Shown here: positions 1-24,612 of the stretch, in pieces
How positions within the stretch are numbered: the first letter of the stretch is position 1
Layout of the letters: each line of letters opens with the position of its first letter
Assembly (NCBI GenBank): GCA_963804955.1
Contig: CAWDSQ010000011.1
Location: forward strand, 32,001 to 96,000
Direction of reading: 5' to 3'
Length of the DNA: 64,000 nucleotides
Origin: an uncultured delta proteobacterium
Lineage (GTDB): Bacteria > Desulfobacterota > WTBG01 > CAIYCZ01 > CAIRTM01
Translations under genes and position numbers: made by a program
Notes under the pieces: generated by a model
What the model was told of the DNA's origin: nothing
The model's input: only the letters and a program-made list of their open reading frames with translations
Databases searched by the model: none

Positions 1-1
1 C

Positions 2-491
2 ATGTTCATGCAGCCCGTGCACCTTGCCATCGGGGTTGTTGAGGGCGCTGCAACCGCCGGCATTGTTTATTTTGTCATCAAGGCGCGGCCCGATATTCTT
101 GATGCAGTGCCCGATGGCTCCCCTTCGCTGCGCAATGTTGCGGTCGGGCTCGGCATAGCGGCACTGCTTATCGGCGGGGTTTTTTCGTGGTTCGCCTCTG
201 AAAAACCAGACGGCCTTGAATGGGCAATGTCCCGTGTTACGGGCACTGAAGAGATAAGCCCCCGGAAAACCGCAACGCACACTGCTTTTGAGCGCCTTCA
301 GGAGAAGGTTGCGCTGCTTCCGGACTATGCTTTTAAAAAGCCTGACAATGCTGAGGCAGGGCAGGGACAGGCCGCGGCCGGCGGTCAATCCCGAGACCTC
401 TGCCGCAGGCATAATCGGCGGCCTGCTGACCCTCGGGGTTGCGCTGCTGACGGGAGTTTTGCTGCGACGCCGGCGCGGCGGAAAAACATAA
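2..491 (+). CDS. cbiM: Cobalt/nickel ECF transporter S component, CbiM/NikMN-type with PDGLE domain (5'-truncated, frameshift near 385)
   Basis: HLAIGVVEG TM motif, WFASEKPDGLE motif; C-terminal TM helix continues in ORF 288..491; upstream of cbiQO. Confidence 0.85.
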
Positions 492-517
492 CTTGATTTG
501 TTGGGTTCGCATCACAG

Positions 518-651
518 GTAGGGTGCGCCGTCCGCACCGATGACGGATGGCTTATTGTGTTGCTATGCCCGGCAGTGTGCAAAACCGGGTTGGTGATGGG
601 GTTTTAATTTTGTTTTTTGATTTGACTTATCGGTGCGCACGGCGAGCCTAC
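518..651. repeat. GTAG-type REP doublet (REPIN-like)
   Basis: gtagggtgcgccgtccgcaccgat (518-541) and inverted atcggtgcgcacggcgagcctac (629-651). Confidence 0.7.
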
Positions 652-717
652 GGGCTTAACCTAACCTGCAAACAAAGTCACTAACAAATATGATGCCGTA
701 TGGCAGAGCGCTGATCC

Positions 718-1530
718 ATGACGTCAAACGACAAGCAACTGTTCAACCTCAACTATCTTGATATTCTTTCCCGTCAGGACACGCCCCTGCACCGCCTTGA
801 CCCGCGGGCGAAAGTGTTGACCGTATGCATCTTTATTGTGGCCGTTGTTTCGTTCGGGAAATATGAGGTCTCGGCGCTGCTGCCGTTTTTTCTGTTTCCG
901 GCGGTCATGATCGGCCTTGGCAATCTGCCGGCGGCATATCTTGGGCGGAAGCTTCTTGTGATACTGCCCTTTGCCCTTCTCATCGGCATTGCAAATCCGG
1001 TGTTTGACCGCGAGGTGCTCCTGAGAATCGGGCCTTTTTCTGTTTCCGGCGGCTGGATTTCCTGCTGCTCTATTATTCTGAGATTTGTTTTGACGGCCCT
1101 TGCCGCGCTTATTCTTATTGCCACCACGGGGTTTATAGGTGTCTGCGCAGTGCTTGAGCGCCTGGGGCTGCCGCGCGTTTTTACGGTGCAGCTGCTGTTT
1201 ATACACCGGTATCTGTTTGTCCTCACCGATGAGGCGGCGCGCATGTCGCGGGCCCGTGCACTGCGCTCTTTCGGCATCCGGGGTATGACGCTTAAAACAT
1301 TCTGCCCCCTGGTGGGCCATTTGCTGCTGCGGACCATCGACCGTGCGCAGCGTATCTATCTTGCCATGGTGTCGCGGGGATTCACCGGAAGCCTGCGCAT
1401 GCGCAGCAGGCTCGGCTTCGGCCGCCGCGAGGCAGTGTTTACTGCGGGCTGGGCCGCGGCATTTATGCTCATGCGTATCGTGAACCTGCCCGAGGCAGCG
1501 GGGCGGGCTATTGAAGGAATATTAAGATGA
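718..1530 (+). CDS. cbiQ: Cobalt/nickel ECF transporter T component
   Basis: LHRLDPRAK start motif, RAQRIYLAMVSRGF coupling helix, multiple TMs. Confidence 0.92.
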   Translation: MTSNDKQLFNLNYLDILSRQDTPLHRLDPRAKVLTVCIFIVAVVSFGKYEVSALLPFFLFPAVMIGLGNLPAAYLGRKLLVILPFALLIGIANPVFDREVLLRIGPFSVSGGWISCCSIILRFVLTALAALILIATTGFIGVCAVLERLGLPRVFTVQLLFIHRYLFVLTDEAARMSRARALRSFGIRGMTLKTFCPLVGHLLLRTIDRAQRIYLAMVSRGFTGSLRMRSRLGFGRREAVFTAGWAAAFMLMRIVNLPEAAGRAIEGILR

Positions 1531-2327
1531 GCCACCATATTATCGAAGTTTCGGACCTGCGTTACAGCTACCCCGACGGCACGCATGCTTTGCAGGGCAT
1601 TTCATTCAGGGCCGTGCATGGCGAATCGGTGGCCGTTGTGGGGGCTAACGGGGCCGGCAAGTCGACCCTGCTTTTGCACCTGAACGGCTATCTTATGCCG
1701 TTACAGGGCAAAATCCGCATCGGCGATCTGCCTCTTACCAAAAGCACGCTGCAGGAAATCAGGCGCACGGTCGGGATGATTTTCCAGGACCCCGATGACC
1801 AGCTCTTTATGCCCACGGTGTACGATGATGTGGCCTTTGGCCCTCTCAACCTGGGCCTGCCGCTTGACGAGGTCGATATGCGGGTGGCAAAAGCGCTCGA
1901 TCTGGTCGGGGTCCCGCATCTGAAGGACAAGCCGCCCTACCGGCTCTCAGGGGGCGAGAAGCGGCGCGTGGCCATAGCAACGGTCATGTCCATGTCGCCC
2001 GATATTCTGGTGCTCGACGAGCCCACGACAGGGCTTGATCCGCTGGCCCGGCGGCAGCTCATCGGGCTGCTGGGGAATTTTCGCCATACAAAAATTATTG
2101 CAAGCCATGATCTTGACATGGTCGCAGACCTGTGCGAGCGCACTATCGTGCTGCATGAGGGGGCCGTCCGTGCCGACGGCCCCACGGCCGATATTTTCAG
2201 GGACGATGCCCTGCTTGCGGCCTGCCGTCTTGAAAAGCCGCTGTCCATGCAGAAGTGCCCTGTGTGCTCTCCCAGAATAAATAAAGCGTCGTGCCCACAC
2301 ACGACCATCATTGAAGGATTGCCATGA
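1527..2327 (+). CDS. cbiO: ECF transporter ATPase
   Basis: GANGAGKS Walker A, FQDPDDQLF, LSGGEKRR, LDEPT; ATGA overlap with cbiQ. Confidence 0.93.
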   Translation: MSHHIIEVSDLRYSYPDGTHALQGISFRAVHGESVAVVGANGAGKSTLLLHLNGYLMPLQGKIRIGDLPLTKSTLQEIRRTVGMIFQDPDDQLFMPTVYDDVAFGPLNLGLPLDEVDMRVAKALDLVGVPHLKDKPPYRLSGGEKRRVAIATVMSMSPDILVLDEPTTGLDPLARRQLIGLLGNFRHTKIIASHDLDMVADLCERTIVLHEGAVRADGPTADIFRDDALLAACRLEKPLSMQKCPVCSPRINKASCPHTTIIEGLP

Positions 2328-3575
2328 CGGCATTACGCGGCATTATCGTACTCATGGGCTCGGGAGAGCTCACCTCCACCATGGTAGAGGTGCACAAGGA
2401 GCTGCTGGCGCGCCTCGGGCCTGCGGCAAGGGCGGTCTTTCTGGACACGCCTGCAGGTTTTCAGCTCAATGCCGACCAGCTGTCGCAGAGGGCTGTCGAG
2501 TATTTTAAGACGCATGTGCACCGGGGGCTTGAAATTGCCTCCCTGAAATCCTATGAGACAGGAAGAACCTATGGCGCTGAAAAAGCATTTCAGACGCTGC
2601 GGGCTGCTGACTTTGTTCTCATCGGGCCCGGCAGCCCCACCTATGCCGTGCGGCAGTGGCGCGCAAGCCCGGTACCCGATATTCTGCACAAGCGCATCCG
2701 GGACGGCGCCTGCCTTATCGCGGCAAGCGCAGCGGCCCTTACCGTTGGGGGCTTTACCCTGCCGGTCTATGAAATTTACAAAGTAGGAGAAGACCTGCAC
2801 TGGGTTGAAGGCCTGAACCTGCTCGGGCAGTTCGGCATACAAAGCTGCGGTCATTCCGCACTGGAACAATGCCGAGGGAGGCACGCATGACACGCGATTC
2901 TGCTATATGGGCGAGCCACGGTTCAGGCAGCTTGAAGCGATGCTGCCCCCGGAAGCGCTGGTCATAGGGCTTGACGAGCACACGGCCTGCATCATGGACC
3001 TTGAGCGGGATGAGGCTCTTGTCAGGGGCATAGGCAGGGTCATTGTCCGCACGAGAACCATGGAGGCGGCATTTGCAAAGGGCGAGCGCTTTCCCCTTGC
3101 GCTGCTGCGGGGCGAAACAGCGGCGCATGATCAGCAGTTTGCGCCCCTGCAGGCTGAACCCGTGCAGGAGACGGCGGCACCTCCGCAGGACTCTTTCTGG
3201 CAGCAGGTTCATGGGCTTGAGGACGCTTTCCGGCAGGGGCTTAGCGGAAACTCCTGGGAGGAAACAACAGGCGCGCTGCTGTCTCTTGACGATGCCATCT
3301 GGAAAGCCCACGAGCAGGGCGAAAGCGAGGAATTTATTTCCCAGGCGCGGGAAGCGCTGCGGGACATGCTGGCAGATCTCGGGAAACGGCTGGGCGCAGA
3401 GTCTGCGCATACTGCCCCTGCTGTAGCGCCCCTGGTTGACGGGCTCATTGCGCTGCGCGCCCGGCTGCGCGATGAAAAGAAATGGCAGGAGGCTGACGCG
3501 CTCAGGCTGTGCCTTGAACGCGCGGATATCATGATCGAAGATGCCAAGACGGCCCCCTGGCATGTGCGGCAATAA
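2324..3575 (+). CDS. Peptidase S51/cyanophycinase-like (GATase1 fold) protein with C-terminal CysRS anticodon-binding-like helical domain (frameshift near 2845)
   Basis: LMGSGE, GPGSP, AASAAA nucleophile elbow, VIPHWNN, IGLDEHTA; C-terminus LIALRARLRDEKKWQEADALR..IMIED resembles the CysRS tail. Confidence 0.7.
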
Positions 3576-3725
3576 CAGGCTGTTGAAAAACGCTCATCTG
3601 CTGCGTTGCGCTCATAATGCTTCACTGCGGCGTACGAAAAAGTACGCCTCATTACGCATGATTTCGCCTGCATAGCAGGTGTAGAGACAACGCGCCTTGC
3701 ATCTGAGCATTTTTGAACAGCCTGT
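3575..3725. mobile_element. MITE with terminal inverted repeats
   Basis: acaggctgttgaaaaa ... tttttgaacagcctgt (one mismatch); a second partial end ttttttcaacaacc follows at about 3734-3747. Confidence 0.75.
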
Positions 3726-3775
3726 ATGCATGATTTTTTCAACAACCGGCTAAAGCCGCAGGAGAGGAGATCGGC

Positions 3776-5424
3776 ATGTACGAGCATCCACAGCTTGCTG
3801 TTTTATGCGTAAGCGCTGCGGGAGACAGCAGCCTTGCCGGTTTTGCGGCATATCTCAAAGCGCTGCGGCATGTGCGGCTTGAGACGGCCGAGCAGCTGCC
3901 GCAGGACCTGGCCCCGTACGGAGCCATCATCACCGCCGGTTTTGCTTCATACGCCGCTCATGAAAAAAACCTGACCGATTTCGTGCGCGCAGGAGGCGGG
4001 TGGCTTGCTTTTGCTGTCAATGCAGAGGTGAAGCTTCCGCAGATTTTTGGCGCCACATGCGGGCCTGCCGGGCCTGAGGCCGAGGTCCGGGTTATGTTTA
4101 CCCACAAAAACAATCCTCTGGCTGTGCGGCTGCCCGATGCCGTGTATGTGACCGGCACGTTCAGGCCCCTTGAGCTGTCGGCTGCTGACACGGAGACGGT
4201 TTTATATGCCGACTGGCACTACACACACCAGGCGGTTCTTGTCACCCGAAGGGAAGGCGCTGGCCGCGTTGCCTGCACAACCCTTGCCCCGTTGCGGTAA
4301 TGAGGCGCTGCATCAAATACTTTACCGGGTGCTGCGCCGGCTCGGAGCATGCGCGGACCGGCCTTCGCCTCTTAATGTCGGCATACTTGGTTATGCGCCA
4401 TCGGTCGGCAAGCTCCACGGCTGCGGAGCGGCGGCCACCCCGGGCCTGCACCTGCACGGGGCATGCGATCTGAGCCCTGAACGGCTCGATCAGGCCTGCA
4501 AAGACTTTCCCGGCATTTGCATATATGCAACAAGTGCCGACCTTGCAGCCGACCCCGCCATTGACCTTGTGATTATTGCAACTGCCCCCAACACTCACGC
4601 GAAGCTGAGCATAGAGATGATGACAGGCCGGCAAGCATGTCATCTGCGAAAAGCCTTTAGCCCTCAGCCGGACCGAGACCGATGCCATGCTTGCAGCCGC
4701 TGAAGCAAACAGGGTGCACCTGAGCTGCCACCAGAACAGGCGGTGGGACCAGGATTACCTCGCCATCAGGCAGGCCCTTGCGGCAGGTCTCATCGGCGAC
4801 CTGTTTTATATGGAAACTTTTGTGGGCGGGTTCAGCCATCCCTGCGGCTACTGGCACTCCCATGCCCCGGTTGCGGGCGGCACCAGCTATGACTGGGGCG
4901 GCCATTACCTTGACTGGATCGTGGGCCTCATGCCCGGCCGTATTCAGTCTGTGCGGGCAACCAGCCACAAGCGCGTGTGGCATGATGTGACCAATAATGA
5001 TCAGGAGCGCCTGCAGCTGCGCTTTGCAGACGGCTGCGAGGCCGAGTTCATGCATTCCGATATCGCTGCCGTGCGCAAGCCCAAGTGGTATCTGCTGGGA
5101 ACTGAAGGGGCGATCATCGGCTCGTGGCGGGATGTGGCGGCCTATGAAATCGATCCGGTTCTCTACTATCACCGCCGCGATATACCCCCGACAGAGATGA
5201 CCCCTGAACTGAGCCTGCATCGCCGGGAGCCCTCGGGCCGGATCGTGGCGCGGGCCCTTGATATCGCCCCGCGGCAGGATTTCGGTTTTCACCGCAATAT
5301 CGCCGATCACCTGCTTACGGGCGAGGCCCTTGCAGCGCCCGTTGAAGACTCGGCACACGTCGTTGCCGTGCTTGAAGCTGCGGCGCGCTCCATGGCCCGC
5401 GAGCGGGGCAGAGGAGGTGCTTGA
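3776..5424 (+). CDS. ThuA-like/GATase domain fused to Gfo/Idh/MocA oxidoreductase (frameshifts near 4290 and 4630)
   Basis: LTDFVRAGGG...GAGRV N-domain; VGILGY, DLVIIATAPNTH, KHVICEKP, HQNRRWD, YDWGGHYLD. Confidence 0.8.
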
Positions 5425-6452
5425 TGCCTGACCGGGTCAGATGGGGAATTCTCGGCAATGCACACATTGGCCGCACCTGCGTTATCCCGGCCATGCAGAA
5501 GTCGCGAAACTGCGCAGTGCTGCAGCCTGGGAACCAGGAATCCCGCTGCTGCATAGGCTCGTTGCAGGCAGCACGATATCGCGAGCGTCGTTGACGGCTA
5601 TGAAGCCGTGCTTGCCGACCCGGCACTTGATGCGGTCTATATACCTCTGCCCAATCATCTGCACTGCGAGTGGACACTCAAGGCTCTTGCCGCCGGCAAG
5701 CATGTGCTGTGCGAAAAGCCCCTTGCCTGTAATGCCGGGGAGGCCCGGCGCATGGCCGATGCCGCTGAAAAGGCGGGCCTGCTGCTCATGGAGGCTTTCA
5801 TGTACCGGTTTCACCCGCGCACGCAGCGTATCAAACAGCTGGTGAGCGACGGCGCCATCGGCGAGCCGCGGCTGGTGCGCGCCTCGTTTTGCTTCTCCAT
5901 GGATCCGGTCACCCTTGCCGATCCCGGCAACCCCCGGCTCAGGCCGGATACGGGCGGAGGCGCACTGCTTGATGTGGGCTGTTACGGCGTGAGCGTCGGC
6001 GCGGTACTTTTTCGGGTGCGAGCCCGAGGCTGCGCAGGCCCAGGCAATCTATAATGATGCCGGTGCGGATATGCTCTTTGCGGGCACGCTTCAGTTTCCC
6101 GGGCGGCAGGCTGGCAACGGTGGAGGCGGGTTTTACGGCAGCCCTGCAGCAGACCTATGCTATCACGGGCAGCCGTGGCTCTATCGAGCTGCCCCATGAC
6201 GCGTTTATCCCCCGGGAACATGATGCAGCATATACGCTGCGGGGCGAGCATGATGAGAACGGCAGACTTTACAGTGTTGCCGGCGCTGATGAATACCGGC
6301 TCATGGTAGAGCATTTCAGCGACGCGGTGCTGGGGCGCGAGCCCCTTGCTTTTTTGCCCCGGGAAAGCGTCTGCAATATGCAGGCCCTTGACGGGCTGGC
6401 GCGCGCCGCCCGGGATGGTACGGCCATATGCCTGCAGGAATTTCAAGCATGA
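5424..6452 (+). CDS. Gfo/Idh/MocA family oxidoreductase (several frameshifts)
   Basis: MPDRVRWGILG start (TGATG overlap), DAVYIPLPNHLH, GKHVLCEKP, MEAFMYRFHP, GGALLDVGCY. Confidence 0.88.
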
Positions 6453-7441
6453 ATCAGCCAGGCAGCATCTGCACCGTGACGCGGGTAGCACCGGAGGGCT
6501 TCAAACGCTGCTGGGAGCAGAGCGGCGCCACTCTGGACTGGGCTTGCCCGTTTATGCTGCCGCCGTGGATAACATCATGGCTGCAGCATTTCGGAGCGGG
6601 AAGGGAGCCGCATATTTATCAGGTCAGCGCCGGGGATATGCTGCTCGGCATTGCGCCTCTGCTTGTGGGCGGCGGCACGGCAAGTTTTATCGGCAGCCCG
6701 GACGTGTGCGATTACCTTGATTTCATTGTAGCGCCGGGCATGCACGGGCGGTTTTTTGCAGGCCTCGCCGCACATCTCAGGAAGCAGGGAATCGTCTCGC
6801 TTGATCTGGGCCCGCTGCGGCCTGACTCGGCGGCTTTTGCCTGCTGCAACGGCGCAGCAGCGCAGTTTGCATGCAGCCTGACCAGCGCTGATGAGGATGT
6901 ATCCTATGAGCTTGCGCTTCCGGCGGATTGGGATGCCTATCTGAGCGGGCTTGCCGTGCAGCAGCGCCATGAGGTGCGGCGCAAGCTGCGGCGGCTTGAG
7001 GAGGCGGGGCCGTTTGACTATCGCATCGGGGATTCCCCTGAGGCGATTGATGCTGCCATGGACATGTTTCTGCATCTGTTCACAATAAGCAGGCCGGACA
7101 AAAGGGCTTTTATGACCGCAGCCATGGAAGCATTCTTTCGGAGCCTTGCACGGTCCATGGCAGACTGCGGTCTTTTACGGCTCGGATTTTTAGACATCAA
7201 TGATGGGCCGGCAGCAGCCGTCATGTGCTTTGAGTACAGCGGTACGGTGTATCTGTACAACAGCGGTTTCGACCCGCGGTTCAAGCGCCTCAACGCGGGG
7301 CTTCTGTGCAAGGTTCTCAGCATCCGCGACAGCATCCAGCGCTGCAAAAAGGTGTATGACTTCCTTAAAGGAGACGAACCGTACAAACAGCGCCTCGGCG
7401 GCGGCGTCGTACGGCTTCAGCGGTGCAGGGTGCTGTTATGA
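6449..7441 (+). CDS. GNAT family protein, Acetyltransf_6 (CelD/BcsL, FemAB-related double GNAT)
   Basis: DYLDFI, LPADWDAYL..RRKLRRL, YLYNSGFDP, YDFLKGDEPYKQR; ATGA overlap with upstream gene. Confidence 0.85.
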   Translation: MNQPGSICTVTRVAPEGFKRCWEQSGATLDWACPFMLPPWITSWLQHFGAGREPHIYQVSAGDMLLGIAPLLVGGGTASFIGSPDVCDYLDFIVAPGMHGRFFAGLAAHLRKQGIVSLDLGPLRPDSAAFACCNGAAAQFACSLTSADEDVSYELALPADWDAYLSGLAVQQRHEVRRKLRRLEEAGPFDYRIGDSPEAIDAAMDMFLHLFTISRPDKRAFMTAAMEAFFRSLARSMADCGLLRLGFLDINDGPAAAVMCFEYSGTVYLYNSGFDPRFKRLNAGLLCKVLSIRDSIQRCKKVYDFLKGDEPYKQRLGGGVVRLQRCRVLL

Positions 7442-7541
7442 ATTCAAAATTGAAGATTCAGAATTCAAAATTTAAGTATTAAATGTAGAGATTGCAGCCT
7501 CGCTCTGTTTTTTTTAATTTTGAATCCGGATGAAGTTAATA

Positions 7542-7625
7542 CGTCGTGCACCCCGGTGAATACCGGGGTCCAGAAAAATCTGATTAATCGCAAAAGACTG
7601 GATACCGGCTTTCGCCGGTATGACG
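7542..7625. repeat. CGTC-type REP doublet
   Basis: cgtc...ccccggtgaataccggggtccag and ctggataccggctttcgccggtatgacg in inverted arrangement. Confidence 0.7.
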
Positions 7626-7671
7626 GAAAACAAGGAGTCTGCTTTGAAAGACACACAAGCTCAGCATCGCC

Positions 7672-8883
7672 ATGATCAGCATTCATGCGAGCCCCCTGGG
7701 GGCTCTGGGGACACGGGATAACGGCGGCATGAGTGTTTGTGTTCGCGAGCTTGCGCGAGAGCTGGGACGCCGGGGGCACAGGGTTGATATATTCACCAGG
7801 GCTTCCCGGCCATCTGACAAAGACTGTATTGTGCTTGCCGACAATGTGCGGCTTGTGTATTTGAAGGTTCCGAAAGCCTACCGTGCGGCCAAAGATGCGC
7901 TGTTCCCGCATCTGCCTGATTATTTCAAGAGGCTTGAGGCCTTCCGCTTGCGCGAGCGCATTGCATATGACCTGGTGCACAGCAATTACTGGCTCTCGGG
8001 ATGCATCGGCAGCAGGGCCCAGGCATGCTGGAGCGTGCCTCACCTGACGACATTTCATACCCTGGGGCTTTTAAAGAACAGAATCGGCAACGGCCTGCAT
8101 GAGCCGGACCTGCGCATCGCCGCAGAAAAGCAGGTTGCGCAGGACTGCAGCCACATCGTCGTGGGTTCGCGGCGGGAGCGGCAAAACCTCAGCCGCCATT
8201 ATCATGTCGCCAAAAGCAAAATAGGCATAGCGCCCTGCGGTGTGGATTTGAAACTTTTCCGGCCCCTTGGCAGAGCGTATGCCCGGCGGAGGCTCGGGCT
8301 TGACACAGGTGAAAAAATCGTACTGTACGTGGGCCGGTTCGATCCCCTGAAAGGCATCAGCCGTGTTGTCGAGGCCATAGGCTTATTACGGCAGCATCCT
8401 GTGCGTTTTATCATCGCCGGCGGCGACGGACAGGCAAACCCTGAAGTGCGCAAGCTGCAGGCGCTGTCCGGCCGGCTTTCCCTTGACGGCGCTGTCCGGT
8501 TTGTCGGCAGGGTCGACCAGCAGGTGCTGCCCCTGTACTACAGCGCTGCCGATGTGCTTGCCGTGCCCTCGCTGTATGAGAGTTTCGGCATTGTGGCGCT
8601 TGAAGCGCTTGCCTGCGGCACGCCCGTTATCGCAACGCCCGTGGGCGCCATGGACAGCATTATCAGAAACGGCCGCAACGGCCTTATTGTCAAAGGCGAA
8701 ACGCCTGCTGCATTCGCCCGGGCCATTAAAGCCTTGACTGCGACAGGCGCGGCGCCGGTGCCCGCACGGGAGACTGTCAGGGAAACGGTTGCCGGGTACA
8801 GCTGGGCCTGTGCCGCAGACAGCATGCTTGAACAGTACCGGGCCGCAATTGCAGGATACAGCAAGGCGCGGCAGCATACCTGA
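7672..8883 (+). CDS. mshA: GT4 glycosyltransferase, MshA (D-inositol-3-phosphate glycosyltransferase)-like
   Basis: MISIHASPL..G..DNGGMSV, VHSNYWLSG, TFHTLG, YVGRFDPLKG, ESFGIVALEALACG; true start probably near 7644 with an indel. Confidence 0.8.
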   Translation: MISIHASPLGALGTRDNGGMSVCVRELARELGRRGHRVDIFTRASRPSDKDCIVLADNVRLVYLKVPKAYRAAKDALFPHLPDYFKRLEAFRLRERIAYDLVHSNYWLSGCIGSRAQACWSVPHLTTFHTLGLLKNRIGNGLHEPDLRIAAEKQVAQDCSHIVVGSRRERQNLSRHYHVAKSKIGIAPCGVDLKLFRPLGRAYARRRLGLDTGEKIVLYVGRFDPLKGISRVVEAIGLLRQHPVRFIIAGGDGQANPEVRKLQALSGRLSLDGAVRFVGRVDQQVLPLYYSAADVLAVPSLYESFGIVALEALACGTPVIATPVGAMDSIIRNGRNGLIVKGETPAAFARAIKALTATGAAPVPARETVRETVAGYSWACAADSMLEQYRAAIAGYSKARQHT

Positions 8884-8896
8884 ACGGAGGTTTTGT

Positions 8897-9593
8897 ATGG
8901 CAGCACACGCAGGCATACTCGTAATAGCTCCCCATCCCGATGATATAGAGTTCGGGGCCGCCGGCGCCATTGCCCGCCTCATACAGGAGGGCAAGCAGGC
9001 GGTCTACGCGCTGTGCACCAGCGGCGATAAGGGCACGAGCGACCGGAGCATCACCCCTGAGCAGCTTGCCGGCCATCCGCGAAAGCGAGCAGAAGGCCGC
9101 GGCGCAGGTGATCGGCGTGAGGGAGGTTGTCTTTTTGCGGTATCCCGACCAGGGGCTTGAAGACAGCCCCGCTTTCAGAAAAGATATCGTGCGGCTCATC
9201 AGGCGGTTCAGGCCGGAAACGGTCATGACCTGCGACCCCTATCACCGGTATGTCTATCACCGCGACCACCGCATTGCGGGGCAGGCTGTGCTTGATGCCG
9301 TATTCCCTTTTGCCCGCGATTACCATGCCTACCCTGATCTGATCCAGGAGGGCCTTGAGCCCCATAAGGTGAAGGAACTTTTTTTCTGGGGTTCGGAGAA
9401 TATCAATTACCGCTGCGATATAACTGATACATTTGTGCTGAAACTTGAGGCTCTGCGCTGCCACGCAAGCCAGATCAAGGAGTTTTGCATTCCTGATCTT
9501 GACGCATGGCTGCGCAGCCGCTGCAGCGAGATGGCCACAGGCGAACCCTTCGAGCTTGCAGAAGCATTTCACCGCGCTCTGCTGCCGCCATAA
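8897..9593 (+). CDS. PIG-L/LmbE family N-acetylglucosaminyl deacetylase (MshB/BshB-like; frameshift near 9070)
   Basis: APHPDDIE, TSGDKG, HRDHR, KLEALRCHASQ, AEAF; GGAGG RBS. Confidence 0.9.
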
Positions 9594-9613
9594 CGCCTGT
9601 ATGCGCAGCAAGG

Positions 9614-9886
9614 CTAAGCATAAAGCCCCACAAAAGAGGAGGTTAAAAAATTCCCCCTTTAGCAGACTGTGTCAGCAATTAACTTTGCTGTCATCTCGAC
9701 CGAAGGGAGAGATCTTTTGTAGTAAGTAAAATCAAGGGCTTAACGATTTCTCACCGCCTGCGGCGGATTCGAAATGACATTAATAAATCAATTGCAACAC
9801 AGGCTCTTAGCAAAGGGGGATTAAACAGGCTTATTTTTTCGTATAAAATTAATAGTGCCCCCTTGGTTGAGGGGAGCTGCGCTTAG
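9614..9886. mobile_element. Composite MITE: outer element A carrying inner element B (9662-9806, TTA duplication), which contains a CGTC-REP pair
   Basis: Outer ends ctaagcataaagcccc/ggggagctgcgcttag; hairpin tccccctttagcaaaggggga interrupted; B right end aattgcaacacaggctc; tta at 9659-9661 and 9807-9809. Confidence 0.75.
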
Positions 9887-9916
9887 TCTGAATAACGGGG
9901 GAAAGGAGGCTCTTTT

Positions 9917-11420
9917 ATGCAGCAGAGTTCCAATTACCATTTCTGCCATGACCTGCCCACAAATCCTCTGCCTGAATTGGGCAGAATACTTGTCACCGGC
10001 GCTACCGGCTATATAGGCGGCCGGCTTGTTCCGGAGCTGCTGGAGCGGGGATACCGGGTTCGGGCTATGGTGCGCGGCATTGCTCCCGAAGTAATTGAGC
10101 GCTGGCCGGGGGTTGAAGTCGCCGTTGCCGATGCGCTGGAGATTGACAGCCTTATGCGGGCACTTGAGGGCGTGCATACCGCCTATTATCTTATTCATTC
10201 TCTGCTGCTCGGCCAGAAAAAGTTTGAATCCGCTGATATTGAAGCAGCCATCAACTTCAGGGAGGCGGCGGAAAAGCAGGGGCTCAAAAGGATCATTTAT
10301 CTCGGGGGGCTTGGCGATGTTCAGTCTGAACTGTCGACTCATCTCAAGAGCAGGATTACGGTTGCGCAGGACGCTGATGCGCGGCACGGTGCCGACAACT
10401 TTTCTGAGGGCTGCCATCATCATCGGTTCCGGCAGCGCCTCGTATGAAATCATCAAGCACCTCGTGCAGAATTGCCCGGTCATTCTTGTGCCGTCATGGG
10501 CACGCACCAAATGCCAGCCGATCGCAATCCGCGATGTCATCAAATATCTCGTCGGCGTACTGGAGAAGCCTGAGGAAACAGCAGGCCGGTCATTTGATAT
10601 CGGGGGCAGCGATATACTGACCTATGAGATGATGCTGAAGACTTTATCCGAGATTCACCTGATAAAAAGACCTTTTATATCATTTCCTCTGAAAACGGTA
10701 AAGCTCTATGCTTACGCCGCCAGCCTCCTGACACCTGTTCCGGCAGCCATCACCATGTGCCTTATGGAGAGCTGCCATAATGATGTTATCTGCCAGAATG
10801 ATGACATACAGCGGATTATTCCTTTTCAGACCATGCCATACCGGGAGGCGCTGGTGCGGGCGATGTCGCGCGAAGAAACTGATAATGTATCCACCAGATG
10901 GTCTGATTCATATCCCCCTGCACACGAGCTTGCCATAAAGCTGAACGAAGTTGAAAGTTTTCCGCTGTACCGTTCAGCCTATTCAATGCTTACCGCAAAA
11001 AAAGCATCATCGCTTTTTGATTCCATAACCAGAATTGGCGGCAAAGAAGGATGGTTTCGCAGCAATCTTCTCTGGCGGATTCGCGGGTGGGGTGACCGGA
11101 TTTTAATGGGTGTGGGCGTATCCCGCGGGAGAAGAAGCTCCGCCACGCTGCGCATCAATGATGTCATAGACTTCTGGCGGGTTGAAGACCTCAGGGAGAA
11201 CGAGCGGCTGCTGCTGCGGGCTGAGATGAAGATGCCGGGCAGGGCCTGGCTTGAGTTTACCATTACGCCCGACACGAAATCTCCGGCACATGTTCTATCG
11301 GTTAATGCGTATTTTCAGGCCCGGAGTTTCTGGGGGAAAATATACTGGTATCTGTTCCTGCCGTTTCACGTATTTATTTTCAACGATCTTATACAGCAGA
11401 TTGAAAAAAGGAGCCTGTAG
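9917..11420 (+). CDS. NAD(P)H-binding SDR with C-terminal DUF2867 (YbjT-like; frameshift near 10370)
   Basis: ILVTGATGYIGGRL, AYYLIHS, IIYLGGLG, LRAAIIIGSGS, DFWRVE, LLLRAEMKMPGRAWLEF. Confidence 0.88.
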
Positions 11421-11482
11421 AGCTGCGAGGGAGCTTCCTCGAGGAATAAAAAATTCGGGCTTTTCTTGCATCCAGCGTTCAA

Positions 11483-12772
11483 TTACATGAGGACAGGCTG
11501 CGGTTTTTTTCGAATCATTATTTTATCGATTCTCGGGCCATCCATATCAACAATTTCCAGCAAAAAGTCCCCAAGGGAAAGGCTGGCCCCTTCGACGGGT
11601 ATGTTTTTCAGCCGGTCGAATACAAACCCGGCAATGGTGGCGTATTTTTCATGCTGCCCGTCAGGCAGGTCCAGGTGCAGCGCATCCATAATGTCAAACA
11701 GCGGGGTGCTGCCGTCAACCAGCAGCGCGCCATCGGTCATAGTCACAATGTGGTGCTGGTCTTCTCCCGCATCCGGCATATCACCCAGCACATGCTCGAT
11801 AAGATCATGCAGGGTCAGCACGCCCTCAAAAGCGCCGTATTCATTGACAACGATGCCGAAATATATTTTTGCCTCTCTGAAAATTTTGACTATTTGCAGA
11901 GGCGTAAGTCTTTCCGGAAGAAAGACCGGCCGTATTAGTATCGTGCGAGGGTCGAATGTCGGGTCGCAATGCCCTGCAAAAAAATCCTTTGCCCGCAGCA
12001 CGCCGATAATATTGTCCAGCGATTGTTCATACACGGGGAAGCAGGAATGCATGCTTTCCCGGATTGTCCGCTCTATTTCACCGCAGGGCCGGGCAATATC
12101 CAGTATGTCGACTTCCGCGCGATTGGTCATGATATGAAACGCCCTTTTATCGGAAAGCAGAAACAGATTCTCATGGAGCTGCATTTCCTCGTGTTGCAGA
12201 ACCCCCTGCCTGCCCGCCGTTTTAATCATGACGCGCAGCTCCTCTTCGGAGAGCGGCGGCTCAGCCTCCTGCCGTATGCGAAATGCCCTCAGAATCAGCC
12301 GGGTTGTGGCCGAAAGCAGAATGATAACGGGATAGGCTGTTCTGGTGAATGCCGCAATAAACGGAACCAGGAAAAAAGCGATGGGCTCGGGATTGCTCAG
12401 GGCGATTGTTTTGGGAATGAGCTCTCCGAAAACAATAGAGCAAAATGTGATGACAATGACCAGCAGCACCATGGAAATCTGATGGGCATAGGGCGCCAGC
12501 GCTTCAATTCGAGCTATAGAGGGCCGTAGATCTTCGGCAAGCGCAACACCGCTATAGGCTCCTGAAACAATGCCGATCAGCGTTATGCCCACCTGTATTG
12601 CCGACAGGAACCGTTCCGGGTCCTCCAGAAGCGCAAGAACGGTTTTTGCCCGCGCATTGCCCAGTTCTGCAGCATGCCCCAGCCTGCTTTTTTTGCAGGA
12701 CACAATCGCAATCTCAGCCAGAGCAAAAAGACCGTTCAATGCTATTAAAATACTGATGATAGCTATGTGCAT
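11483..12772 (-). CDS. HlyC/CorC (CNNM) family protein: DUF21 + CBS pair + CorC
   Basis: NGLFALAEIA, FLSAIQVGIT, GELIPK, VNEYGAFEG, VDMDGPRIDK. Confidence 0.92.
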   Translation of the reverse strand: MHIAIISILIALNGLFALAEIAIVSCKKSRLGHAAELGNARAKTVLALLEDPERFLSAIQVGITLIGIVSGAYSGVALAEDLRPSIARIEALAPYAHQISMVLLVIVITFCSIVFGELIPKTIALSNPEPIAFFLVPFIAAFTRTAYPVIILLSATTRLILRAFRIRQEAEPPLSEEELRVMIKTAGRQGVLQHEEMQLHENLFLLSDKRAFHIMTNRAEVDILDIARPCGEIERTIRESMHSCFPVYEQSLDNIIGVLRAKDFFAGHCDPTFDPRTILIRPVFLPERLTPLQIVKIFREAKIYFGIVVNEYGAFEGVLTLHDLIEHVLGDMPDAGEDQHHIVTMTDGALLVDGSTPLFDIMDALHLDLPDGQHEKYATIAGFVFDRLKNIPVEGASLSLGDFLLEIVDMDGPRIDKIMIRKKPQPVLM

Positions 12773-19132: not shown

Positions 19133-20369
19133 ATGCGCATCCACTATGGCATTATTATTCTTGGACTGATTGTGTGTTCCGTGTTCAGCGCGCTGGGCCT
19201 GGCGCGTTTTGGCTATACCAGTATCCTGCCCGCTATGCAGGAAGGCCTGCACCTGTCCAACACGCAAACCGGGGCACTGCAAACCTTGAACCTTGTCGGC
19301 TATTTGCTCACGGTGGTCTTTGCCGGCATTTTTGCCGCCCGGTATGGCCCGCGGATTGTTATAGCCTTTTCTCTGCTCATTGTCGGTCTGTCGATGATTG
19401 TAACCGGTCTTGTTCCAACGGTTGAAGCCGCCTGTATCGGCCGCTTTTTCGCCGGCGTGGGCGGAGCTGGCGGAAATGTTCCGGCCATGGGCCTTGTGTC
19501 GGCATGGTTCGGAGCCAGGAGGCGCGGCCTTGCCTCCGGTGTGGGCGTCACCGGGTCGAGCGTCGGGCTGATTGTGACGGGGCCGCTTATCCCTGCAATT
19601 TTAAATCAGTATGGTCCCGGGGGCTGGCGGATCAGCTGGTATGTGCTTGGAGCTCTCTCTCTTGCTGTGTGCGCTCTATGCGCTGTATTTTTGCGCAACC
19701 ACCCTGCGGAGAAGGGGCTCAAGCCCGTCGGCGAAAATGAAGCTGAATGCATACAACGCAACAAGCGGGGCCGGCGCCCCGTCTTTGCATTGGAATCTGA
19801 TCTGGAGATCGCGCCTGCTGTGGCAGCTTGCCGCGATCTACTGCGCTTTCGGGTTTTCCTATATCATCTATTCCACCTTTTTTGTCAGGCATCTGGTGAA
19901 AGACGGCGGCTTTACGCCTGGCGGCGCCGGGTCTCTCTGGATGCAAATCGGCATGGTTTCAATGATCAGCGGCTTTATCTGGGGCAGCGTCTCTGATCGC
20001 TGGGGGCGGCGCATGGCGCTGCTGTGCGTCTTCACGCTGCAGGGCGTATCGTTTGCTGTTTTCGGCCTGAGCACCCACGTGACCGCCGTTTATTTTTCCT
20101 CTGCATTGTTTGCATTGACCGCATGGAGCATCCCTGCCCTGATGGCCGCCCTTGCCGGCGACGTGTTTGGCGCTCGACTGGCCCCTGCTGCCCTTGGCCT
20201 GATGACAATCGTCTTCGGCATCGGGCAGGCGCTGGGTCCGTATTTCGCCGGCGCTGTTGCGGATGCCACACAATCGTTTTCAACAGCTTTTGTGATAGCC
20301 GGGATAGTCGCACTGGTCTTCGGCACAGGCGGGTCGCTTTTTTTGAGAACGTCAAAAGGCGTCACGTGA
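19133..20369 (+). CDS. MFS transporter, YbfB/YjiJ-like (frameshift near 19750)
   Basis: GLARFGYTSILPAM, GSVSDRWGRR, about 12 TMs over two ORFs. Confidence 0.88.
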
Positions 20370-20698: not shown

Positions 20699-20886
20699 TA
20701 AAGGGGGAATGTTTCGCCCCATCTTTTTAGGGGCTTTGTCGGGAGTATTAACTTAAGCTTGACACAGTATTGCGGACGCCTGTATGGTTTTAGCGAAGAG
20801 GCATTAATATAATTTACCGGTTATATGAAGGCATACAAGGTGAGCTCCCGGACTGCGGCATGCGCCATCCGTCGGGCAATCCGTTT

Positions 20887-21507
20887 ATGAAACAGGTGAC
20901 ACAGATATCCTTTGTGCGGCACGGGCATGTGCATAATCCCGGTGCGGTCTTATACGGAAGGCTTCCTGGATTCAGACTCGACAGGCAGGGCGTGCAGGAG
21001 GCACAGCGTGCCGGCAGGGCGCTGTGCGGAAAAAATATTACCGCCATCTTCAGCAGCCCCCTGCTCAGGGCCCGCCAGACAGCCCGTGAAGTGCTTGCCT
21101 GCAGCGGAACCCTGCCGCTGCGCTTCTCAAAGCTGCTTACTGAAGTGCATACATACTTTGAAGGCCGGCCGTCAGCTGAAATTGATGCGCTGCAGGATGA
21201 TATTTATACGGGGGCGCCGCCGGGCTTTGAGCAGCCCGCAGATATTGTTGCGCGGGGTATGCGGTTTGTGCAGCGAATGCGCCGGCAGTATGCGGGACAG
21301 CATATTGCCGCCGTTACCCACGGCGACATCATCGTGTTTATGATTTTGTGGGCGAAAGCGATGCCCCTTACACCGGCAAATAAGCTTCGGCTTTCAGCAT
21401 CAGGCGTTCTTGACGCCTACCCGGCACCAGGCTCTATTACAACGTTTACCTATCGAACGCTGTCACCGGATGAAAAGCCGGCTGTGCGCTATGTGAAGCC
21501 TTTGTGA
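20887..21507 (+). CDS. Histidine phosphatase (phosphoglycerate mutase family)
   Basis: FVRHG, SSPLLRARQTA, LTEV, VTHGD. Confidence 0.9.
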   Translation: MKQVTQISFVRHGHVHNPGAVLYGRLPGFRLDRQGVQEAQRAGRALCGKNITAIFSSPLLRARQTAREVLACSGTLPLRFSKLLTEVHTYFEGRPSAEIDALQDDIYTGAPPGFEQPADIVARGMRFVQRMRRQYAGQHIAAVTHGDIIVFMILWAKAMPLTPANKLRLSASGVLDAYPAPGSITTFTYRTLSPDEKPAVRYVKPL

Positions 21508-23190: not shown

Positions 23191-24612
23191 TTATGCGGTC
23201 TGCTTGATGCCCAGCTGCAGGGCCTCTTCAAAAAGCTGCATCGACAGGTCGATTTCCTGCTCTCGTAATATAGAGCGACGGCGCAAGGGTAAAAACGTTT
23301 TTGCAGTAGCCGCCCACATCAAGGATAAGGCCGCGTTTTTTGCCGCCCGCCGTGAGATTGCCTCCAAGCCGATATTGGCAATGGCATCGGTAAGCTTTTT
23401 GTTGGGCGTGTACCCGTCGGCCTCGCACATCTCAACGCGCAGGGCAAGGCCGATGCCGTCAACATCGCCGATCTGTTTATATTTTTTCTGCAGCGCCTTG
23501 AGCTGCTCCACGAAATAGGCGCCTTTTTCCGGCACCGAGCGCTCAAAATCAGACTCCTCAATCAGCTTCATCGTTTCAAGCCCGACTGCAGTGCCCAGCG
23601 AATTGGATGAGAAGGTCGCATGCGTGCAGCCCGGGGGGAACACCTTCGGCTCGATCAGGTCTTCTCGCGCCCAGATGCCCGAGAGCGGGTTGAGGCCGTT
23701 GGTGAGGGCTTTGCCGAACACAATGATATCGGGCGTGACGCCGAAATGCTCGATGGAGCAGAACTTGCCCGTGCGGCAGAACCCCATTTGAATTTCATCG
23801 TCAACAAGCATGATATTGTGCCGGTCAAGAATCTCTTTGAGTTTTTTGAAATAGTCGTTCGGCGGAATCACGTAGCCGCCCGTGCCCTGTACGGCCTCAA
23901 TATAAAATGCGGCAAATTCGGCCGTGTTGGTCTTGGTGTTCAGCACGGACTGATATTCGGTCTCAAAGAGCTTTTCAAACTGCCGCAGGCAGAACATGCC
24001 GCAATCTTCACGCTTTTTTTCATAATGGCAGCGGAAGCAGTACGGATAGGGAATGAACCATGCCCGATCGGCAAAGTGGCCGTAGCGCTCCCGGTAGCGG
24101 TAGCTTGAGGTAATGGCCGAGGCCCCGAGCGTACGGCCATGATAGCCGCCCATGAAGGCAAAGACGAAATTTTTGCCCGTGCGGTTGCGCACCACCTTCA
24201 TGGAATCTTCAACTGCGGCGGCGCCACCCACATTGAAATGAATGCGGCCTTTTTGGCCGAAAGTTTTTTCAATGCGCCGGGCAAGGGCCGCGGCCAGCTC
24301 TATTTTTTCGCGGTGCAGGTACTGGCAGGCAAGCTGGGGCAGCGTGTCTATCTGGCGTTTCAGCGCTTCATTCAGCCGCTGATTGCCGTAGCCGAAGTTG
24401 ACGGCAGAATACCACATCTGCAGATCGAAATATTCCGTTCCCGCTGCGTCGTACAGGCAGTTGCCTTCTGATCGTGTAAAGATATCAAGCTTTTCAGCAT
24501 AATGAACCGTATCGCCCCAGGAGCAGTATTGGGCTTCGAGTTCGAGCAGTTCCTCGTCAGATAGTGGCCGGTCTGTGCTTTCGATGCAGGCGGCGGGGCG
24601 AGTCGGTTTCAT
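23191..24612 (-). CDS. Class III PLP aminotransferase
   Basis: GGAAAVE, GGYHGRT, EAVQGTGG, DDEIQMGFCRTG, PDIIVFGKALTNG. Confidence 0.9.
   Translation of the reverse strand: MKPTRPAACIESTDRPLSDEELLELEAQYCSWGDTVHYAEKLDIFTRSEGNCLYDAAGTEYFDLQMWYSAVNFGYGNQRLNEALKRQIDTLPQLACQYLHREKIELAAALARRIEKTFGQKGRIHFNVGGAAAVEDSMKVVRNRTGKNFVFAFMGGYHGRTLGASAITSSYRYRERYGHFADRAWFIPYPYCFRCHYEKKREDCGMFCLRQFEKLFETEYQSVLNTKTNTAEFAAFYIEAVQGTGGYVIPPNDYFKKLKEILDRHNIMLVDDEIQMGFCRTGKFCSIEHFGVTPDIIVFGKALTNGLNPLSGIWAREDLIEPKVFPPGCTHATFSSNSLGTAVGLETMKLIEESDFERSVPEKGAYFVEQLKALQKKYKQIGDVDGIGLALRVEMCEADGYTPNKKLTDAIANIGLEAISRRAAKNAALSLMWAATAKTFLPLRRRSILREQEIDLSMQLFEEALQLGIKQTA

Follow-up and report, generated by a model that had tools for sequence, protein, structure and literature searches.

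A conserved gene cluster of anaerobic bacteria as a candidate aminoacyl-tRNA-dependent pathway to a mycothiol-like compound

The DNA analysed here (the window) is a stretch of 64,000 nucleotides from an uncultured delta proteobacterium (Desulfobacterota), positions 32,001 to 96,000 of contig CAWDSQ010000011.1 in assembly GCA_963804955.1. Between positions 2324 and 9593 it carries six genes, all on the plus strand (Table 1), which were assigned by Pfam searches with the window pieces and through intact orthologues at locus L018 of a genome from the same family. The encoded proteins are a hydrolase of the peptidase S51 type fused to the C-terminal end of a cysteinyl-tRNA synthetase (CysRS), a ThuA-Gfo fusion and a second Gfo/Idh/MocA oxidoreductase, a double-GNAT protein, a glycosyltransferase of family 4 (GT4) and a PIG-L deacetylase. 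An earlier note on this DNA, made from its letters alone, had listed six co-oriented genes with these domains and several stop/start overlaps. Both observations were borne out, with overlaps at the CbiO/S51 junction (2324-2327) and at the Gfo/GNAT junction (6428 vs 6452). The cluster may be a cytoplasmic biosynthetic operon that builds an aminoacylated, most likely cysteinylated, glucosaminyl-inositol on the mycothiol scaffold with an aminoacyl-tRNA as donor. The probability of this reading is put at roughly one half.

Table 1. Genes of the cluster and the putative phosphatase gene in the window
Feature	Position	Strand	Basis
S51-type serine-hydrolase domain + CysRS C-terminal helical bundle/anticodon-binding domain (CysS_C)	2324..3575	+	Pfam, profile, AF2 model
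ThuA-like domain + GFO_IDH_MocA oxidoreductase fusion, accessory gene	3776..5424	+	Pfam on pieces
Second Gfo/Idh/MocA oxidoreductase, accessory; start approximate	5417..6452	+	Pfam GFO_IDH_MocA
Double-GNAT (Acetyltransf_6), FemX-like fold, frame intact	6428..7441	+	Pfam PF13480, 112.5 bits
GT4 glycosyltransferase, MshA-like, frame intact	7672..8883	+	NCBIfam TIGR03449
PIG-L (LmbE) family deacetylase; start approximate	8897..9593	+	Pfam PIG-L
His_Phos_1 phosphatase, 11 kb from the cluster, membership inferred	20860..21507	+	Pfam, 95.8 bits

Among the NCBIfam models, the GT4 protein matched MshA (TIGR03449) best, with 305.1 bits at a cut-off of 462.5 (292.9 bits for the L018 orthologue). The next model reached 125.6 bits, BshA (TIGR03999) 96.9 bits (cut-off 273.7) and the SPS domain 91 bits. 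Against the Protein Data Bank (PDB), MshA of C. glutamicum (3c4q/3c48) was matched with 243 bits and Tll1590 (6kih) with 237 bits, followed by BshA (64 bits) and PimA (50 bits). Judged by these similarities, the protein is a candidate transferase of N-acetylglucosamine (GlcNAc) from UDP-GlcNAc to inositol phosphate. The residues taken to bind the inositol phosphate in MshA are identical in its alignment with the GT4. Tll1590 is presumably a sucrose-phosphate synthase; if so, it also uses a phosphorylated acceptor, which would fit the phosphatase linked to the cluster.

The two window pieces of the PIG-L gene gave 44.5 and 65.3 bits with the Pfam model, and the intact L018 orthologue gave 114 bits. 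For the latter, the best NCBIfam match was BshB1 (101.8 bits, cut-off 182.5), followed by Mca (56.8 bits) and MshB (TIGR03445; 45.6 bits, cut-off 224). It is a candidate GlcNAc-inositol deacetylase, and two further PIG-L paralogues are present in the genome of the window. The same genome holds one copy of the inositol-phosphate synthase Ino1 (PF07994), on another contig (316 bits at G000:C24). In L018, Ino1 lies directly upstream of the S51 gene, and no more than about 2 kb separate it from the GNAT and GT4 genes in two further families (f52 and f31). In a phylum sample of 301 genomes (at least 90% completeness requested; S51 counted at E ≤ 1e-40, GNAT at E ≤ 1e-30), it was found in 36 of the 37 S51-positive and 61 of the 64 GNAT-positive genomes, vs 123 of the 237 GNAT-negative ones. 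The histidine phosphatase of the window is 49.5% identical over 206 amino acids to the neighbour of PIG-L in L018 and is a candidate GlcNAc-inositol-phosphate phosphatase. Taken together, the results for GT4, PIG-L, Ino1 and the phosphatase make glucosaminyl-inositol (GlcN-inositol) the best-supported scaffold, presumably reached from GlcNAc-inositol-phosphate by way of GlcNAc-inositol.

Enzymes of these families might also serve a membrane glycolipid or an envelope glycoconjugate. In this case GlcN-phosphatidylinositol would be formed as in the early synthesis of the glycosylphosphatidylinositol (GPI) anchor, by a PIG-A-like GT4 and PIG-L, and later aminoacylated in the manner of aminoacyl-phosphatidylglycerol. 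The PIG-L family takes its name from the GlcNAc-phosphatidylinositol deacetylase, PimA belongs to GT4, domains of the aminoacyl-lipid synthase MprF are among the fold matches of the GNAT, and Ino1 is widespread across the phylum. However, the GT4 scored 243-305 bits with the soluble MshA vs 50 bits with PimA, the recurring phosphatase is of a soluble type and fits an inositol-phosphate acceptor, and no CDP-alcohol phosphatidyltransferase was seen among the conserved neighbours. In addition, none of the module proteins contains a membrane-helix-like hydrophobic stretch, which argues against a glycolipid pathway. A lipid product is therefore considered very unlikely, and the soluble GlcN-inositol scaffold is retained in what follows.

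The main Pfam match of the GNAT protein was Acetyltransf_6. The FemAB_like model (PF04339) gave 16.5 bits with the window protein and 32.6 bits with the L018 orthologue, at a cut-off of 27. The AlphaFold2 (AF2) model, with a mean confidence (pLDDT) of 92.2, displayed a double-GNAT fold. The best Foldseek matches were 9wqw, 9wqy and 9wqx, the aminoacyl-tRNA-dependent peptide synthases Sbb17/Sba18, at a target TM-score (TMt) of 0.67-0.75; one of these structures holds the bound amino sugar streptothrisamine. Next came FemX, FemA and the MprF domains (Foldseek E 1e-12 to 1e-9). CoA-dependent folds matched less well (TM 0.4-0.5), the acetyl-CoA-dependent tandem GNAT 2wpw at about 0.5, and the glucosamine N-acetyltransferase 5kga was also among the matches. 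This agrees with the kinship to Fem-type transferases that the earlier note had suggested. At the sequence level, a comparison of the GNAT with the NCBIfam models at E ≤ 0.001 revealed only a weak match to the crotonyl-CoA transferase BspF (25.8-34.9 bits) and none to the MshD-type acetyltransferase model, and a PDB sequence search with the GNAT profile gave no meaningful match. All 24 homologues compared keep Lys320 of the C-terminal YKxRLGG motif. It is a candidate counterpart of Lys305 of FemX, an enzyme that, according to the 2026 review PMC12945691, works with a single catalytic lysine. The same review describes that Orf11 turns streptothrisamine into glycylthricin using Gly-tRNA (PMC12945691). 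Aminoacylation of an amino-sugar amine from a charged tRNA, as carried out by Orf11-type enzymes, is also the type of reaction proposed here, and by its modelled fold the GNAT is a candidate for moving an aminoacyl group from tRNA to the amine of GlcN.

The first gene of the cluster encodes the second protein with tRNA-related features. A profile of 14 homologues matched 6nqc, a cyanophycinase-like structure, over residues 6-257, and its residues ~294-414 matched CysRS only, namely the last ~125 residues of 3tqo, 1li5 and 8qhp (E 6e-8 to 3e-6). In total, five CysRS structures or sequences were matched by the tail in this search of solved structures. The CysS_C model (PF23493) gave 24.5 bits in the window and 25.8 in L018, at a cut-off of 23. 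In the AF2 model (pLDDT 82.6), the N-terminal 260 residues adopt the S51 fold and a disordered linker spans residues 271-288. Foldseek matched it to 6nqc (TMt 0.81), to PepE and cyanophycinase (0.74-0.77) and to the CysRS-tRNA complex 1u0b_B. The candidate triad, assigned from motif position, would consist of Ser135, His179 and Glu218 (L018 numbering). The serine is present in 39 of 40 homologues, the histidine and the glutamate in all 40, and Cys193 is invariant in the same set. Mean column identity stood at 71% in an alignment of 14 sequences and at 57% in one of 40. The tail retains the CysRS-type motif W..AD..R...ED...G..W, and the NCBIfam cysS model was matched at positions 345-464 of 466 only. 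The catalytic Rossmann domain is thus missing, and the fusion would therefore be unable to activate cysteine. The matched module corresponds to the part of CysRS that, according to a review, reads the GCA anticodon, which counts among the major identity elements of tRNA-Cys.

The genes occur together far more often than by chance. The gene order was repeated in seven of ten relatives' loci fetched around the GNAT, with the S51 gene inside the same array. One of the remaining contigs begins within the array, and two loci from the class-level family f4 hold GNAT-GT4-PIG-L alone, the S51 gene being located on another contig. Among 41 relatives, 20 carry the GNAT, 16 the full S51-CysS_C protein, 15 both and 20 neither. 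The neighbourhoods of the 80 best S51-anchored loci were also compared. In the 52 whose sequence continues for 5 kb or more past the S51 gene, one or more of GNAT, GT4 and PIG-L were present in 39, all three in 30 and none in 13. ThuA-Gfo (15/52) and the second Gfo (14/52) form an optional pair. Recurrent extras in the 80 loci were His_Phos_1 (13), a HAD phosphatase (10) and a hydrolase of the metallo-beta-lactamase (MBL) fold (10), and by clustering an inositol-phosphate synthase of either of two types was found in nine flanks. His_Phos_1, present in 10 of the 52 long-flank loci, is usually convergent and placed just after PIG-L.

Linkage is not needed for this association. In the phylum sample, 37 genomes were S51-positive, 64 GNAT-positive and 33 both (33 of the 37 S51-positive genomes), counts that are descriptive since related genomes are not independent samples. 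One S51-positive genome (G107) lacks the CysS_C part. The fusion and the GNAT also co-occur unlinked, in f4 genomes and in five genomes from outside the phylum whose S51 gene has no such neighbours (Syntrophomonadaceae and Dehalococcoidia with two each, Aminicenantaceae with one). Each of the latter carries a GNAT orthologue elsewhere (E 1e-64 to 1e-109), which lies beside GT4 and PIG-L in four; in the fifth the contig ends at the GNAT. The S51-CysS_C family comprises at least 8000 clusters at 90% identity, with relatives in at least 596 species-representative genomes. Its database names are confined to 'peptidase E', 'cyanophycinase-like exopeptidase', 'type 1 glutamine amidotransferase-like' and 'CysS/YqeB C-terminal domain-containing'. 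Carriers among the matches listed are Desulfobacterales or other delta-proteobacteria, Syntrophobacteraceae, Nitrospirota/Thermodesulfovibrio, Nitrospinaceae, Deferrisomatales, Syntrophomonadaceae, Dehalococcoidia and metagenome-assembled genomes of Aminicenantaceae. Conservation of the neighbourhood beyond the host lineage, on which the earlier note had made its proposal depend, was found in records of Desulfobacterota type, Nitrospirota, Nitrospinaceae, Syntrophomonadaceae, Dehalococcoidia and Aminicenantes.

The genome of the window, which is 87% complete, was also searched for known low-molecular-weight thiol pathways. No MshC (TIGR03447) was found above the cut-off of 485 in this genome, whose sole CysRS-like locus gave 311 bits. 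BshC (cut-off 265.8) was matched neither here nor in five further genomes, and gshA (PF04262) and gshB (TIGR01380) of glutathione synthesis had no match in the genome of the window. The lack of mshC and bshC that the earlier note had reported for the window was thus extended to the genome at this completeness, and ino1, which it had proposed to look for, is present. The best family match of the small MBL hydrolase was glyoxalase II, GloB (TIGR03413), at 83-92 bits (cut-off 200.8). This gene is adjacent in 10 of the 80 loci, in locus L114 and in five of five S51-lacking loci examined. No orthologue was detected in the genome of the window (tblastn, E 1e-8), for which the 87% completeness or frameshifts may account.

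The same scaffold and tRNA chemistry could also lead to a product other than a thiol. Another amino acid would then be added, giving a compatible solute, a storage compound or a signalling glycoside, and the tail would serve general tRNA binding or regulation. Inositol glycosides are osmolytes in other prokaryotes. The evidence for cysteine is indirect, GNAT-GT4-Ino1 variants exist without PIG-L or the S51 fusion, and the known Fem-type enzymes take Gly, Ala, Ser, Leu or Lys according to PMC12945691. In contrast, the tail matches CysRS only, among both solved structures and family models, with its C-terminal motif kept. A GloB-like hydrolase recurs as a neighbour, and no glutathione, bacillithiol or mycothiol pathway was detected in the 87% complete carrier genome. 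A product without cysteine appears rather improbable on this evidence, and a cysteinylated GlcN-inositol is preferred.

The route to such a product might proceed as follows. Ino1, encoded elsewhere in the genome, would make inositol phosphate, to which the MshA-like GT4 would attach GlcNAc. The histidine phosphatase, or the HAD enzyme in other genomes, would take off the phosphate, and PIG-L would strip the acetyl group to leave a free GlcN amine. This amine would be acylated with an amino acid from an aminoacyl-tRNA instead of one activated by a ligase of the MshC or BshC type. Two proteins with tRNA-related features are available for this step, the FemX-like double-GNAT and the S51 Ser-His-Glu hydrolase, tethered to a CysRS module that would read the tRNA-Cys anticodon. 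The product would be a low-molecular-weight thiol of the Cys-GlcN-inositol type, and the ThuA-Gfo/Gfo pair, present in about a third of the loci, may modify the cyclitol. The work could be divided in two ways. The Fem-like GNAT may be the transferase, with the S51 fusion selecting or handling Cys-tRNA or adding a second residue; the fold matches of the GNAT and the lineages with MBL-GNAT-GT4-PIG-L and no fusion favour this version. Alternatively, the fusion may itself transfer cysteine by way of a serine acyl-enzyme, with the GNAT capping the product, as favoured by the near-invariant candidate triad and by a one-to-one mapping onto MshC and MshD.

If the latter version is taken to its end, the proposal becomes a mycothiol-like split on the same scaffold, in which the S51 fusion alone would transfer cysteine from Cys-tRNA in place of MshC, and the GNAT would cap the cysteine amine from an acyl-CoA in place of MshD. 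The components then map one to one onto MshA, MshA2, MshB, MshC and MshD, and MshD is itself a tandem GNAT. The S51 candidate triad is also kept in 39-40 of 40 homologues, the acyl-CoA user BspF was the only NCBIfam match of the GNAT, and 2wpw and 5kga were among its Foldseek matches. Nevertheless, the GNAT fold is nearest to tRNA-dependent enzymes (TMt 0.67-0.75 vs 0.4-0.5 for CoA-dependent ones), it matched no MshD model at E ≤ 0.001, and lineages without the S51 fusion, MshC and BshC would be left without a ligase, in so far as these incomplete genomes show. This split is judged unlikely, and the broader scheme, acylation from an aminoacyl-tRNA by one or both of the two proteins, remains preferred.

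A more far-reaching proposal concerns the S51-CysS_C protein itself and is offered tentatively, as a possibility that is more doubtful than the pathway as a whole. The fusion could represent a new class of aminoacyl-tRNA-dependent transferase that selects Cys-tRNA-Cys by its anticodon with the CysRS-derived module, takes the cysteinyl group onto the Ser-His-Glu triad and passes it to an amine. Beside the FemX-like enzyme, this would provide a two-step route free of ATP-dependent ligases to a new low-molecular-weight thiol, Cys-GlcN-inositol or an aminoacyl-Cys variant of it, in anaerobes of at least five phyla. Cyclodipeptide synthases work through a serine acyl-enzyme. According to PMC12945691, they take the aminoacyl group from aminoacyl-tRNA by ping-pong chemistry, and they are a precedent for the mechanism suggested here for the S51 domain. 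In contrast to the fusion, they have an unrelated fold, derived from the catalytic domain of a class I synthetase, and form a different product.

Several observations weigh against the proposed pathway. The S51 domain scored below the curated cut-off of its named family (PF03575), with 19.9 bits in the window and 19.6 bits in L018 at a cut-off of 23.9. The earlier note had described the GT4 as MshA-like and PIG-L as an MshB counterpart. The first description held in so far as MshA was the best model for the GT4 (305 bits vs 126 for the next); both proteins remained under the curated cut-offs for MshA, MshB, BshA and BshB. The GT4 acceptor could also be another sugar phosphate, because the cyanobacterial Tll1590 is nearly as similar as MshA. 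Ino1 is common in the phylum anyway (184 of 301 genomes, among which related ones are not independent). Proteins of the Acetyltransf_6 family are not proven users of tRNA, and the sole NCBIfam match of the GNAT, although weak, is the acyl-CoA user BspF. Cysteine is suggested by the CysRS-like tail and by analogy, to which the GloB-like neighbour adds weakly. Furthermore, 31 of the 64 GNAT-positive genomes of the phylum sample lack the S51 fusion; these contain mostly lower-scoring GNAT subfamilies, and several also lack PIG-L. Four f4 genomes (G028, G032, G038 and G039, 73-87% complete) and G074 (90%) carry MBL-GNAT-GT4-PIG-L, and in these five genomes no S51 fusion, no extra CysRS paralogue and no BshC was detected. 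To judge from these lineages, the fusion is not always required. Overall, the computational checks suggested in the earlier note all spoke for its mycothiol-like, tRNA-ligated cluster, and the domains, the conservation and the MshA-like GT4 were upheld; the cysteine is still reached by inference, and the fusion is missing from some lineages. The interpretation given in that note is partly supported.

Variants of the cluster were also seen in these comparisons. In G032, G028, G038, G039 and G074 (loci L125-L129), the GloB-like MBL gene, GNAT, GT4 and PIG-L form a colinear array. In the f4 genomes with the fusion (G030 and G036), no MBL gene lies beside the GNAT-GT4-PIG-L trio. The MBL and S51 hydrolases may partly substitute for each other. 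A more distant variant, at L119, L121, L123, L131 and L132 (genomes G225, G070, G107, G137 and G252), consists of GNAT-GT4 with Ino1 nearby and has neither PIG-L nor the S51-CysS_C fusion; its GNAT frames are unusually long in several genomes (553-710 amino acids). Since this variant has no deacetylase, the acceptor atom must differ, possibly with an ester as in aminoacyl-lipids or with a different donor sugar. G107, which carries this variant, also holds an S51-like paralogue (L122, 7058-8170) that is 39% identical over residues 6-261 and has no CysRS-type tail. At L077 (10001-11251), a homologue of the fusion shows GGT instead of ASA in the serine motif, has lost several tail residues and lies apart from any trio. 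This copy may have become inactive or be in decay.

The comparison with known systems places the cluster near actinobacterial mycothiol biosynthesis (Ino1, MshA, the MshA2 phosphatase, MshB, MshC and MshD). Common to both are the MshA-like GT4 with PIG-L, Ino1, which the genome encodes and relatives have next to the cluster, a phosphatase linked to it, a GNAT of two domains and a CysRS-derived protein. Unlike in mycothiol synthesis, MshC is absent and the CysRS-derived part is limited to the anticodon-binding end, joined to an S51 hydrolase; the GNAT is of the Acetyltransf_6/FemX-like type and not MshD, GT4 and PIG-L do not reach the MshA and MshB cut-offs, and the cluster is carried by anaerobes from several phyla other than Actinobacteria. 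Bacillithiol synthesis (BshA, BshB, BshC) follows the same GT4 plus PIG-L logic; PIG-L matches BshB1 best (101.8 bits), and the glyoxalase-II-like neighbour recalls thiol-dependent glyoxalase systems. Unlike in that pathway, the GT4 reaches only 97 bits with BshA at a cut-off of 273.7, BshC was not found, and the linkage to Ino1 points to inositol, not malate, as the aglycone.

With FemX/FemA, the MprF domain and the streptothricin-type enzymes Orf11, Sba18 and Sbb17, the GNAT shares the predicted double-GNAT fold (TMt up to 0.75), and it has a conserved C-terminal lysine of its own. It differs from them by an identity of only 10-15%, by Acetyltransf_6 instead of FemAB as its main Pfam family, by a use of tRNA that is putative, and by a setting that looks like primary metabolism over several phyla instead of antibiotic or cell-wall synthesis. 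The last ~120 residues of the fusion align to CysRS residues ~336-460 (1u0b, 1li5, 3tqo) with the motif retained; unlike in CysRS, this module is joined to an unrelated hydrolase fold in place of the Rossmann catalytic domain. The hydrolase part resembles peptidases of family S51 (dipeptidase E, cyanophycinase, 6nqc) in fold (TMt 0.74-0.81), and its conserved Ser, His and Glu are a putative triad by their motif positions. It departs from them in the sub-threshold Pfam score, an identity of 14-20%, many additional invariant residues including a cysteine, and the synthetase tail, and the operon context gives no hint of Asp-peptide hydrolysis.

Only GNAT and GT4 are single open frames in the window, a point that the earlier note did not make. 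The S51 gene lies in two frames, ThuA-Gfo in three, the second Gfo in at least three and PIG-L in two. In a DNA alignment with two same-genus relatives, the window has one inserted base near each of 2840, 4294, 4623, 5400, 5521, 5996, 6090-6098 and 9071, with a further one at about 10370 in the downstream gene, roughly one per kb in the region. The insertion near 2840 splits the S51 gene into the pieces 2324-2890 and 2907-3575; those near 4294 and 4623 split ThuA-Gfo, those near 5521, 5996 and 6090-6098 the second Gfo, and that near 9071 PIG-L. Public metagenome contigs that are 90-99% alike were compared at the break sites. They have one letter fewer at 2839/2840 (one contig each of X1 and X4), at 4623/4624 (three of X1, two of X2), at 6095 (one of X1) and at 9073 (one of X2), and the other break sites have no listed row. 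The rpoB gene of the same genome is also in two frames (G000:C30:222099-226147). Because the relatives and the public contigs lack the extra bases and rpoB is split as well, the breaks are read as indel errors of the assembly and the genes are treated as functional; an interpretation as pseudogenes was rejected on these grounds. Many same-strand overlapping pairs of open reading frames occur across the window (e.g. 19133/19611, 26464/26733, 36435/36775, 52646/54099 and 59928/60332/61188). Fragmented gene calls are to be expected for this genome, and such errors may be the cause of the 87% completeness estimate.

The broken frames also bear on a last explanation, in which the cluster, with its deacetylase, peptidase and inositol or sugar dehydrogenases, would salvage or break down an external compound (GlcNAc-inositol or a peptide-sugar) and would be decaying to pseudogenes in this genome. 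Four of the six genes are frameshifted in the window, S51 is a family of peptidases, sugar utilisation is the typical role of ThuA and Gfo/Idh, and ECF-type CbiQ/CbiO genes lie upstream with a stop/start overlap. On the other hand, a GT4 synthase and a Fem-like transferase are enzymes of biosynthesis, the insertions are specific to the window and rpoB shares the defect, CbiQ/CbiO linkage is confined to few loci (5-9 of 80), and the orthologues are intact and highly conserved (57-71% mean column identity in the S51 family). Salvage is accordingly given hardly any credence, and the biosynthetic operon stands as the reading adopted.

For the two accessory oxidoreductases, the L018 orthologues are intact as well. 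That of ThuA-Gfo (554 amino acids) gave 70.5 bits with GFO_IDH_MocA and had PRK11579 (107 bits) and IolG (89 bits) as its top NCBIfam matches, both far under the cut-offs. That of the second Gfo (340 amino acids) matched Gfo6 (126 bits) and IolG (101 bits), again under the cut-offs; in the window, the piece at 5608-6054 gave 63.7 bits with GFO_IDH_MocA and 46.8 bits with its C3 domain. A scan for promoters and terminators over 500-11600 found 4 promoter-like sites vs 4.9 expected and 19 terminator-like sites vs 11.9, with no clear operon boundary, and no Rfam match was obtained in window positions 1-12000 at E ≤ 1.

Two of the spacers contain repeated elements. Between the S51 and ThuA-Gfo genes (3576-3730) lies an element of ~150 bp with the inverted ends CAGGCTGTTGAAAAA ... 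TTTTTGAACAGCCTG, of which the genome holds about 19 copies. Its summed contig depth amounted to 350-390x in three of four unrelated metagenome runs, and its borders showed loose ends. It had no Rfam match and looks like a MITE- or REP-like element. Between GNAT and GT4 (7592-7631), a palindromic element of ~35 nt with the stem ATACCGGC/GCCGGTAT has about 11 copies in the genome and showed high depth in all four runs.

Upstream of the cluster, the CbiQ- and CbiO-type ECF transporter genes occupy 718-2327, the latter overlapping the S51 gene. Only 5-9 of the 80 related loci have genes of this kind, so this linkage is probably lineage-specific synteny. Directly downstream (9917-11420), a fusion gene of NmrA/NAD(P)-binding and DUF2867 domains is frameshifted near 10370. 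The two relatives of the same genus have it at the same place, and L018 carries a more distant homologue, 2 kb downstream of its cluster. A frameshifted transporter gene of the major facilitator superfamily (MFS) is located at 19133-20369, just upstream of the histidine phosphatase gene, and a class-III aminotransferase of 601 amino acids with an N-terminal extension of ~170 residues is encoded on the minus strand at 23191-24996.

Searches of the open full-text literature, which excludes subscription journals, found neither the cluster nor the S51-CysS_C fusion described, nor any mycothiol-like pathway that depends on tRNA. The cluster could thus be an undescribed pathway of the mycothiol/bacillithiol type, and one of its protein families could be a new enzyme class. 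To our knowledge, the protective thiols of most strict anaerobes, among them sulfate reducers, Nitrospirota, syntrophs and Dehalococcoidia, are unknown. The module offers a concrete and testable candidate thiol pathway for such organisms. If the proposal is true, the sugar-thiol family of mycothiol and bacillithiol would reach well past Actinobacteria and Firmicutes, and central redox metabolism would be able to draw cysteine from charged tRNA. A hydrolase-fold, anticodon-guided enzyme would in that case join the short list of aminoacyl-tRNA-dependent transferase classes. The mechanism of cysteine ligation is, as far as we know, still open for BshC, and the module may illuminate how cysteine can be ligated without an MshC-type ligase.

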